In this document: positions 14,010-19,564 of the stretch, in pieces
Layout: each line of letters starts with the position of its first letter
How positions within the stretch are numbered: position 1 is the first letter of the stretch
Assembly (NCBI RefSeq): GCF_963921235.1
Contig: NC_086097.1
Span: 171,866,001 to 171,930,000 of the forward strand
DNA: 64,000 bases
Reading direction: 5' to 3'
Source: Mobula hypostoma
Lineage: Eukaryota
The notes under the pieces: generated by a model
Told to the model about the DNA's origin: nothing
What the model saw: the letters and a program-made list of their open reading frames with translations, nothing else
Databases searched by the model: none
Program-made: the position numbers and the translations under genes

Positions 14010-15790
14010 TAAGTTGATTTATTACCGTCAGATGTACCAAGGTTCAGTGAAAAACTTCATTTTGCATGCCATCCATGTAGACCATTTCATTAAATCAGTG
14101 CATTGAGGTAGTACAATACAAAAAGGGAAAACAATAATAGAATGCAGATCAGCACATAATAGTTTCAGAGAAAGTGCAGTGCAGGCAGATAATGAGGTGC
14201 AAGACCACGAGATAGATTATGAGGTCAGAATGTGCTGAGGTGTGTCCACAACTTTCAGCAGTTTCTTGCAGTTTTGGGCAGAGAAGTTGCCATGATGCAT
14301 TTGGCTAGAATGTTTTTTATGGTGCATTGATGAATATTGGTGACATGCCAAATTTCCTTAGCCTCCTGAGGAAGTAGAGGCATTGATGAGCTTTCTTAGC
14401 CACAACATCCATGTGCTGGACCAGGCCAGATTATTGGTGATGTCCACTCCTAGGAACCTGAAGCTCTCAACTTTCTCGACCTCAGCTCTGTTGATGTAAG
14501 CAGGAGCATGTGCATCACCCCACCTCCTGAAGTCTTTAGCCAAATCTTTTGTTTTTCTAACAATGAGGGACACCATGACACCATGCAACTGATAGCTATA
14601 TATATATATAAAATATCTCTCTCTCTCTCTCTCTTTTCTTCCAGTACTCAACTGGGCTGAGAAGTGGCAGATGGAATTCAACCTGGAGAAGTTTGAGGTG
14701 GTACACTTTGGAAGGACAAACTCCAAGGCAGAGTACAAAGTAAATGGCAGGATACTTGGTAGTGTGGAAGAGCAGAGGGATCTAGGGGTACATGTCCACA
14801 GATCCCTGAAAGTTGCCTCACAGGTAGATAGGGTAGATAACAAAGCTTATGGGGTGTTAGCTTTCATAAGTCGAGGGATAGAGTTTAAGAGTCACAGGGT
14901 AATGATGCAGCTCTATAAAACTCTGGTTAGGCCACACTTGGAGTACTGTGTCCAGTTCTGGTCGCCTCACTATAGGAAGGATGTGGAAGCATTGGAAAGG
15001 GTACAGAGGAGACTTACCAGGATGCTGCCTGGTTTAGAGAGTATGGATTATGATCAGAGATTAAGGGAGCTAGGGCTTTACTCTTTGAAGAGAAGGAGGA
15101 TGAAAGGAGACATGATAGAGGTATACAAGGTATTAAGAGGAATAGATAGAGTGGACAGCCCGGGCCTCTTCCCCAGGGCACCACTGCTCAATACAAGAGG
15201 ACATGGCTTTAAGGTAAGGGGTGGGAAGTTCAAGGGGGATATTAGAGGAAGGTTTTTTACTCAGAGAGTAGTTGGTGCGTGGAATACACTGCCTGAGTCA
15301 GTGGTGGAGACAGATACACTAGTGAAATTTAAGAGACTACTAGACAGGTATATGGAGGAATTTAAGGTGGGGGGGTTATATGGGAGGCAGGGTTTGATGG
15401 TTGGCACATAACATTGTGGGCCGAAGGGCCTGTACTGTACTGTACTATTCTATGTTCTATGTACTCCAATTAACTGTTATTTGGGATTTGCACATTATGG
15501 TGACATCTACAAACCTGCAGATGGAATTTGAGCAGAATCTGGCTACACAGCCACACAGCACAGAGTAGAGTAGGTAGCTGAGGATGCAACCTTATGGGGC
15601 ACATGTGTTGGGATAATCGTGGCAGAGGTGTTGTGGTCTGTTGGTCAGGAAGTCAAGGATCCCAGGGAAATATTCACTTCGAAGTCTAAGCGTTTGGAGG
15701 TTTATCTGCAAGGAATTATATATTAAGGGAAGCTATAGTCAACAAACAATAGTCTATTGCCAGTGCCTTTACTGACGCTCCAGAGATAAA
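14010..15790 (-). mobile_element. Degenerate Rex1/Babar-like LINE interrupted by a microsatellite and a CR1
   Basis: KTKDLAKDFRR...VESFRFLGVDITNNLAWS in ORF 14358-14843. RT remnants resume at about 15470-15780. Confidence 0.7.
14645..15462 (+). mobile_element. 5'-truncated CR1 with an open RT C-terminal region
   Basis: 246-aa ORF 14671-15411 (WQMEFN...RPHLEYCVQFWSPH...FFTQRVV). TTCTATG tail. Preceded by (TA)n(TC)n at 14598-14633. Confidence 0.9.
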
Positions 15791-17965: not shown

Positions 17966-18306
17966 TGAGGCATTGATCACGTGGATAGTCAGAGGCTTTT
18001 TCCCAGGGCTGAAATGGTTAGCACGGGAGAGCACATTTTTAAGGTGCTTGGAAGTAGGTACAGACGAGATGTCAGGGGTAGGTTTTTTACGCAGAGAGTG
18101 GTGAGTGTATGGAATGGGCTGCCTGCGATGGTGGTGGAGGTGGATATAATAGGGTCTTTTAAGAGACTCCTGGATAGGTACATAGAGCTCAGAAAAATAG
18201 AGGGCTATGGGTAACCCCAGGTAATTTCTCTGGTAAGGACATATTCGGCACAGCTTTGTGGGCCGAAGGGCCTGTATTGTGCTGTATGTTTTCTATGTTT
18301 CTATGT
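17966..18306 (+). mobile_element. Short CR1 3' end (family B)
   Basis: DSQRLFPRAEM...FFTQRVV followed by (TTTCTATG)n. It sits inside an older CR1 (about 17690-17748 and 19070-19400). Confidence 0.85.
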
Positions 18307-18327: not shown

Positions 18328-19071
18328 CTTGTTACATACACCTGTTAGGGTGCATTCTCTAGTTACCTTATAAGGTAACCGCAGCCTTCAGCCAGAAGCA
18401 GATATCATCAGGTGGTTCCCAACCTTCACCGAGTGTTTCGACCCTTAACCACAACACTCTCCAGTTCGTGGGCCAGCAGTGGTGGCCAAATCACTGCCCA
18501 TTTGCTCCTGGCTTCCAGCTTCCCTCCTCTTGCCTACTCCAAATCCAACAAGAGGCTCGTTCTGCCTCTTCCCCCATCCTACGGGCTGCTTGTTTTTTGC
18601 TCCTTTCGTCCAGGCCCAGATCTGACAATAACCGCCATGCTGATTTGGCTGGGAAACCTCTGCAGCCGATCTCCACAGGGAACAACCATGCCTGCCATCC
18701 CTTGTCTTTACACTCCTGCACTAAGAGCTGGTACTCAAGGCCTTTCTCTTGTGGGCCTCTTCCCATCCCTCTTCCCACGGCACAGTCAGTTTAACCAGAA
18801 TTATTTTCTTGTCTTCGGTTGACCACAGTACAATGTCCGGGCGTAGGGTTGTGTGCACCATATCCGGGAACTGCAACCTCCTTCCCACTTCGACCCTCAT
18901 CTCCCAGGACCTGGCTATTAGCAGCAGATTGGGCTTTGGTTGTTTGGTTACGAAAGGCCTGGCTCCCTCTTTGACGAAGGTGATGGCCTTCCTCAAATCT
19001 GTGCCAGCCGTCCTCTTCTTGCATCTCTCCCTCTCTAGTGTGTCAGCAAGAGCGAGAAGCACTTTATCATG
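18328..19071 (-). mobile_element. HERO-like (R2-group) non-LTR retrotransposon 3' fragment with a restriction-like endonuclease
   Basis: Two frameshifted ORFs (18721-19095 and 18491-18778) join to HDKVL...LRPDIVLWS..KKIILVKLTVPWEEG..EAHKRK..Y...GWQAWLFPVEIGCRGF...AERASCWIW. This is the RHD/PD..ExTVPWE/K..KY RLE motif series typical of HERO. Confidence 0.85.
18399..18459 (-). ncRNA. Candidate non-circularly permuted hammerhead ribozyme in the HERO-like 3' UTR
   Basis: Minus strand reads GAGTGT-T-GTGGTT-AA-GGGTC-GAAACACTC-13 nt-AACCAC-CTGATGA-TATCT. Stems III and I are perfect 6-bp helices abutting the core motifs. Confidence 0.55.
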
Positions 19072-19564
19072 AGGGGCAGAGTTTGGTGAATGCACTCAGT
19101 CTTTTTCCCAAGGTACGTGAATCACGAATTAGAGAGCATAAGTTTAAGGTGAGAAGGGAAAGATTTAATAGAAAGTTGTGTTTTTTTTAAACACGAAGTG
19201 TGGTATGTATGAGGAAAGAGCTGCCAGAAGAAGTGGTTGGGGCAAGTACAATAGCAACTTTTAAAAAAAATAATTAGATAGGAACATGGATAGGAAAAAT
19301 TTGAGGGATATTGACAAAATGTGGGCAATTGGACTAGCTTAAGTGGGCATATTGACTGATAGAGATCAGATGGGCCGAAGGGTCTTTTCTGTGTCATGTG
19401 ACTGTTTGACTTTTATTTGAACTGGGACAAGCATGTTTTGAGTTGCAAATGACAGGGAGGGTGGGGAAAGTGAAGGGCAGAGAAAGGGAACAAAGGGAAA
19501 AAGGAACAGAATTAGGCATTTGGCCCATCGAGTCTGCTCTGCCCTTTGACCATGATTGATTAAT

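Follow-up and report, generated by a model that had tools for sequence, protein, structure and literature searches.

A predicted hammerhead ribozyme with a core split at A9/G10.1, from the 3' UTR of an R2-group, probably HERO, retrotransposon, and its possible part in copying from RNA circles

The window analysed here, a stretch of 64,000 nucleotides of the Mobula hypostoma genome, holds on its minus strand a truncated copy of a non-LTR retrotransposon with a restriction-like endonuclease (RLE). The 3' untranslated region (UTR) of this copy raises the question of whether it carries a hammerhead ribozyme whose blocks stand in a non-circularly permuted order, and what such a ribozyme would do for the element. 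An initial annotation had quoted the hammerhead core elements from this UTR, and all of the quoted letters are present on the minus strand from 18459 to 18399. It had placed the motif about 30 nt past the stop codon; the stop codon occupies 18493 to 18491 and stem III begins about 32 nt beyond it. The pairing given there for stems I and III is correct. The copy consists of the following parts:

18328 to 19072, minus strand: 5'-truncated copy of an RLE-type non-LTR retrotransposon of family 1, 745 bp, boundaries set by alignment to natural copies
18491 to 19072, minus strand: C-terminal portion of the ORF, including the region of the restriction-like endonuclease, with a frameshift near 18725 to 18790, stop codon at 18493 to 18491
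18499 to 18512, minus strand: 5' strand of the closing helix P0, within the last ORF codons
18475 to 18498, minus strand: hairpin filling the gap from P0 to G10.1, with the stop codon inside
18470 to 18474, minus strand: true 5' strand of stem II according to covariation, G10.1 at 18474
18463 to 18468, minus strand: 5' strand of the helix that connects stem I with stem II (I-II helix), one mismatch in the window copy
18454 to 18459, minus strand: 5' strand of stem III, U16.1 at 18454
18452 to 18453, minus strand: predicted cleavage site 3' of H17 (18453), from the hammerhead consensus
18447 to 18452, minus strand: 5' strand of stem I
18431 to 18444, minus strand: block G, comprising the 3' strand of stem II (18444 to 18440), G12 to A14 (18439 to 18437) and the 3' strand of stem III (18436 to 18431)
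18419 to 18424, minus strand: 3' strand of the I-II helix
18405 to 18417, minus strand: 3' strand of stem I (18417 to 18412) and C3 to A9 (18411 to 18405)
18391 to 18404, minus strand: 3' strand of P0, immediately after A9, including the strand initially assigned to stem II
18328 to 18390, minus strand: remaining 3' UTR up to the fixed 3' end, 125 nt beyond the predicted site

Two further fragments lie in the window at 14596 to 15411 (minus strand) and 17969 to 18214 (plus strand), one of them adjoining the 3' end of the element; we take both to resemble CR1-type LINE reverse transcriptases in their C-terminal part.

Family 1 is dispersed, its other copies being 94-96% identical (40 scored among 1,289 candidates), and has a unit length of about 3,736 nt. 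A search with the ORF end of a natural copy (P0001) yielded 368 relatives, of which the named ones belong to teleosts, lancelet, bivalves and a crinoid, while the best PDB matches of a longer relative (P0122) were R2 proteins. No relatives were found among the viral contigs searched. Full units encode one N-terminal zinc finger, and the single ORF combines this finger with a reverse transcriptase (RT), a zinc knuckle and the RLE as in the HERO clade (the zf-RVT match being below the cut-off). The flanks of 58 distinct copies are unrelated by eye, which indicates that insertion is mostly not target-specific. The endonuclease motif is, we assume, that of a HERO-type RLE. The name HERO is based on the initial annotation, on this motif and on the accessible part of PMC4640811. 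Judged by these protein features, the element is probably an R2-group non-LTR retrotransposon with HERO as the likely clade.

In order to assess the fold beyond one copy, metagenome contigs were searched by a profile scan and the best 80 of 548 confirmed loci were used. Of these, 64 were assessable, extending to the ORF end and 150 nt or more beyond it; 16 were set aside as too short or short of the ORF end. A descriptor that used the core motifs and stems I and III only parsed the order site, GAAA, CUGANGA after the ORF with a perfect core in 52 of the 64 assessable relatives (53 of the 80 overall), which share 37-72% protein identity with the query. The same descriptor parsed none of 1,920 dinucleotide shuffles and one of 578 ORF or upstream stretches. 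A motif-free search for four crossing helices returned the same register in 43 of the 64 loci and five further loci in register, each with one core change. Among the 12 unparsed assessable loci, five have one core change, three have a motif damaged by eye, two have it beyond the 400-nt window, and L087 and L104 have no motif. In one family U replaces C3 in both of its loci (L066 and L081).

Across the parsed loci C3-A6, G8, A9, G12-A15.1 and U16.1 are invariant, whereas variation occurs at N7, at H17 and in the stems. The base at H17 is U in 13, A in 11 and C in 10 of the 34 clusters under the descriptor, which excludes G, and the motif-free search, free of this restriction, gave G17 in one of 48 in-register parses. 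Apart from this single parse, position 17 is U, A or C as the NUH rule for the cleavage triplet demands. A MAFFT alignment that was not adjusted to the structure, made from the 34 cluster representatives and the window with stretches cut at a fixed distance from U16.1, showed pairing in 89.7% of cells against 66.2% when shuffled and at most 48.8% in slid controls, with 12 of 14 pairs varying on both sides. Stem II reached only 77.7% because its columns mix two registers. Three covarying stems thus surround the core, and the 10.1-11.1 pair is GC in 25 and GU in five of the 34 clusters. Rfam scans gave no hammerhead match. Nested folding, which cannot represent crossing helices, gave a z-score of +1.42 for the motif; it does recover P0 and the hairpin.

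We regard it as virtually certain that the hammerhead fold is real, and by the shuffle and control counts the motif is no chance occurrence; it is conserved and covaries across distant families. This agrees with the initial annotation, which had proposed a hammerhead fold with a pseudoknot and a non-circularly permuted order, located in the 3' UTR of an RLE non-LTR element, and had named conservation of core and stems among relatives as the check. A second, younger family in the same genome (family 2; L111-L140, L333-L392) has the same fold with A17 and CUGAAGA, and most of its copies carry a mismatch in stem III.

A fold of this shape need not cut. It could serve as a hammerhead-shaped handle bound by the element protein to start reverse transcription, with the helices at A9/G10.1 silencing catalysis; the U at position 3 in one family and the U at 11.1 in five of the 34 clusters would fit such a role. 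However, the conservation pattern is a catalytic one (G8, G12, the NUH rule and a free N7) and is maintained across proteins that are only 37-45% identical, and there is no clear reason for a binding site to avoid G17. We consider such a non-cutting handle quite improbable, and it is likely that the predicted ribozyme self-cleaves.

The strands are connected differently from what had been assumed. The initial annotation had proposed a weak stem II with a 3' partner strand, but this partner pairs in only four of the 34 clusters, whereas a strand upstream, 19-21 nt before U16.1, reaches a score of at least 3.5 of 4 in 30 of 34, compared to 20 of 408 control windows. The strand following this upstream stem II strand pairs just before the 3' strand of stem I, giving an I-II helix with a score of at least 4 in 32 of 34 clusters, a count without a null of its own. 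Directly after A9, a strand that includes the sequence first read as stem II pairs further upstream as P0, with a score of at least 6.5 in 27 of 34 clusters compared to 140 of 1,122 swapped partners, and between P0 and G10.1 a hairpin scores at least 5 in 24 of 34. The core is thereby opened between A9 and G10.1 by the closing helix and the hairpin.

The order of site block, GAAA block and CUGANGA block is that of type SGC, published by Eckert et al. in 2023 (PMC10085705), so that the initial annotation was right that non-circularly permuted hammerheads have been reported. According to the accessible part of that paper, type-SGC hammerheads (HRIMA-1 and variants) were found in metatranscriptomes only and in no genomes of known organisms, and its six permutations assume that the block with CUGANGA and the stem II strand is uninterruptible. 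In the element the stem II strand does not lie directly 3' of CUGANGA and the unbroken block C of type SGC is absent; since the core is split in exactly the block assumed to be unbreakable, the fold stands outside the six permutations. The search patterns given in the accessible part of PMC10085705 demand G or UG after CUGAUGA and therefore cannot match it. The predicted fold is thus a hammerhead by every tested feature, SGC-like though not type SGC as defined. Our literature search, with most subscription journals outside its reach, found no report of the SGC order in a retrotransposon or of a core split at A9/G10.1; it found no report of a hammerhead functioning with helices between A9 and G10.1, and type SGC described only in PMC10085705.

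The window copy itself is a decayed fragment. The initial annotation had read a GUU site; the position of H17 was right, while U17 and the U after CUGAUGA are peculiar to this copy. Position 17 is C in 52 of 69 family 1 ends, U in 16 and G in one, and the base after CUGAUGA is C in 26 of 30 family 1 copies. The window copy is therefore slightly decayed relative to most of its family. A need for dimers, also considered initially, is not apparent, as all stems would form with 5-7 bp within one molecule.

The ends of the copies bear on what the cleavage would be for. The 58 distinct 3'-anchored copies all end 124-125 nt beyond the site, none of these 58 starts at it in the first pass, and none of 30 copies ends at it. 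Bases upstream of the site are kept in 214 of 293 exact matches, about as decay predicts. A ribozyme with a weak 3' stem II, maybe completed in a dimer, whose cut would make the 3' end of the element RNA, as initially suggested, shares the block order and site found here; with its stem II partner pairing so rarely and no copy ending at the site, it is extremely improbable, and processing of the 3' end has to be given up.

Long copies show a different layout, in which the end of the 3' UTR continues directly into the 5' leader of the element. Leader-bearing copies have no fixed 5' end and instead carry their own 3' end directly upstream. In family 1 this was seen in 25 of 30 loci (one more with a 15-nt piece) and in 33 of 40 further unselected loci, 58 of 70 combined, out of 75 leader matches in all. 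The set of 57 of 64 used for later counts is biased upward because eight of the first 30 with short or no fragments were left out. Family 2, at about 45% protein identity and with a unit of 3,637 nt, shows it in 54 of 60 loci from 125 leader matches. In 11 of 43 metagenome loci the leader lies no more than 100 nt beyond the ribozyme (two far-off matches uncounted), and head-to-tail joins in short contigs may be assembly cycles. The spacing at the junction is identical in 53 of 53 (family 1) and 53 of 54 cases (family 2), while ordinary 3' ends show slippage repeats in 41 of 133, which argues that the junction was copied from the template. Our search, from which Repbase, Dfam and most subscription journals were out of reach, found no hammerhead or more-than-unit copies reported in HERO elements.

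Several observations were made along these units. The 5' leader is conserved across families; in it a short hairpin with a purine-rich loop of six bases occurs three times (L033:2570-2740; L202 and L208 just past the junction), flanked by GUGAC-like words. It gave no match in Rfam and could be a protein-binding or a cap-independent translation element. At the ORF start the first in-frame Met is preceded by a conserved stretch that resembles peptide (unit after L033, L204, L208), and the unit after L033 has no Met ahead of its zinc finger, which suggests a non-AUG start by analogy with R2, or an RNA structure. L032 and L033 lie on one contig, and the 3' end of L033 continues into the leader of a unit whose ribozyme differs, so that different families stand head to tail; in L207 the end of a family 2 unit directly adjoins a truncated copy of family 1. 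The 3' UTRs of L085, L088 and L094 contain, after the ORF, two boxes 36-44 nt apart, which we take to be Pol III-like A and B boxes. ARAGORN called no tRNA on 12 loci. If the boxes are a promoter, they would place it in the repeated end.

A conserved fold in the tail together with long copies that repeat their own tail in front suggests that the fold cuts and rejoins RNA into a circle which is copied for more than one round. A partial-tandem locus would be transcribed across two ribozymes, both of which would cut to give a monomer. The two ends of this monomer could rebuild one ribozyme via about 35 bp of shared helices and be ligated by the ribozyme or by a host ligase. The RT would then prime at the junction 125 nt past the site, copy 3.6-3.7 kb round the circle and often continue past one round, displacing its own cDNA and thereby producing the partial tandem needed for the next round. 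In support of this route stand the fold, the inserted copies that cross the site intact, the fixed junction and private variants shared by the two ends of a locus. Upstream fragments run past the site in 36 of 57 (family 1) and 38 of 54 cases (family 2). The two ends of one locus diverge by 4.7% compared to 5.8% between different loci (43 loci, family 1) and by 3.0% compared to 3.4% (39 loci, family 2), which was reached in none of 2,000 permutations in either family. Doubleton variants shared by an upstream and a downstream end fall in the same locus in 21 of 87 cases (2.0 expected) and nine of 37 (0.9 expected), respectively. The truncation rate per nt rises about 4-5-fold, from 0.0003-0.0008 before the junction to 0.0015-0.0044 after it, in a comparison of first-pass matches chained across indels with second-pass matches that were not. 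A weak excess of fragment starts at the site, given below, would also fit. The rise in truncation could equally reflect scattered RNA 5' ends, and local gene conversion could likewise make the two ends of a locus alike.

Against the circle, one molecule should give identical ends at insertion, yet diagnostic sites are discordant within the locus in seven of 42 cases (site +89) and nine of 26 (site +22, G/T only), and only about a quarter of the doubletons are same-locus. The upstream fragments of L246 and L248, 2.4 Mb apart, share variants, one of them in CUGAUGA, that their downstream ends lack; no first-pass copy starts at the site, and no break in linkage was seen there. Taken together, these observations suggest that some templates were multimers from mixed arrays or that templates were switched. 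A serious rival is accordingly a linear template: the ribozyme cleaves, but tandem loci give longer-than-unit transcripts that are inserted uncut or partly cut. The cut would then free an uncapped 5' end for translation or remove upstream sequence, like the HDV-like ribozymes of R2, and terminal redundancy would be renewed by tandem arrays or template switching. Such linear copying would account for the discordant ends and for upstream-only variants with a damaged core common to two loci. It would also account for the arrays of three units and upstream fragments of more than 1.1 kb that occur among family 1 loci, for the Pol III-like boxes upstream of the ribozyme (three loci in one count; L085 and L094 named), and for a small excess of fragment starts at site 0 to +3 (five compared to 1.2 expected, P 0.009, in a range chosen post hoc). 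It fits less well with the fact that most upstream fragments pass through an intact-looking ribozyme and with a junction free of the slippage seen at primed ends; furthermore, the upstream part could only become shorter with each round, although the layout is found again in distant families. We consider linear templates less likely than the circle. The non-cutting handle would likewise be compatible with copies that nearly always cross the site intact, and with a fold at a short, fixed distance (125 and 86 nt) from the priming site.

Since a ligated site is collinear with the genome, DNA alone cannot separate a circle from an uncut multimer. We nevertheless lean towards a ribozyme that cuts head-to-tail transcripts to unit RNAs, which are circularised as templates for the RT. 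The full proposal is offered more tentatively: a seventh hammerhead arrangement, active with its core opened at A9/G10.1, would make the circular RNA by which a whole R2-related clade replicates, target-primed reverse transcription starting inside the circle and running for more than one round.

If this is true, hammerheads of non-circularly permuted order, so far reported from environmental RNA, would also occur at high copy number in the genomes of animals. They would gain an arrangement excluded by the paper that defined the type, which is why Rfam and the published patterns miss it, and with it natural, covarying examples for asking how far the A9/G10.1 step tolerates insertion. The long-proposed, unproven copying of autonomous retroelements from ribozyme-made circles could then be put to the test in an element related to R2, whose group now serves in genome writing.

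As far as the accessible part of PMC10085705 and its supplement describe type SGC, the element fold shares with it the block order, the short linker between the stem I and stem II strands and the I-II helix, and with HRIMA-1 the cyclic order of strands as read from the SGC-2 oligos. In type SGC, CUGANGA is followed by the stem II strand either immediately or after a single U, and the ribozyme ends beyond the I-II helix, whereas in the element the stem II and I-II strands come first and the ribozyme ends in the helix inserted at A9/G10.1, opening where HRIMA-1 carries one extra U. According to the accessible part of PMC1636495 a single additional base is tolerated between A9 and G10.1, and Penelope-like hammerheads also have an extra base there (PMC4209133, accessible part).

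For Penelope-like elements the same model of circles and more-than-unit copies was proposed by Cervera and de la Pena in 2014, and the accessible part of their report (PMC4209133) describes an autonomous retroelement with partial-tandem copies whose repeated end carries a hammerhead, as here. Their motifs are minimal, of type I, thought to act as dimers and located in GIY-YIG elements, while the present fold is full, pseudoknotted, of monomer size and located in an RLE element. Non-LTR retrozymes (PMC7229834; bioRxiv 2026.07.22.740005) similarly form tandem units with a hammerhead, circular RNA being the proposed template, but they are short, non-coding and of type I, whereas the present unit of 3.6-3.7 kb encodes RT and endonuclease. 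By analogy, and as far as PMC6765202 is accessible, the arrangement would work like that of Penelope-like elements and retrozymes without the element being a member of either, as it has an R2-like RT with an RLE and neither the GIY-YIG endonuclease of the former nor the ORF-less structure of the latter. The accessible part of PMC6765202 also allows a comparison with the 5' HDV-like ribozymes of R2 and L1Tc: in both cases a self-cleaving RNA would release the RNA of a non-LTR element from a longer transcript, and in tandem the present ribozyme too is situated just upstream of a leader. The HDV-like ribozymes belong to another class and cut at the 5' end of the element, while the site here is internal and crossed by most copies. 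With its single ORF (N-terminal zinc finger, RT, zinc knuckle and RLE) and no fixed target the element resembles the HERO clade, and the more-than-unit pattern of Penelope-like elements and retrozymes is seen here in an element of the R2 group, probably of HERO.
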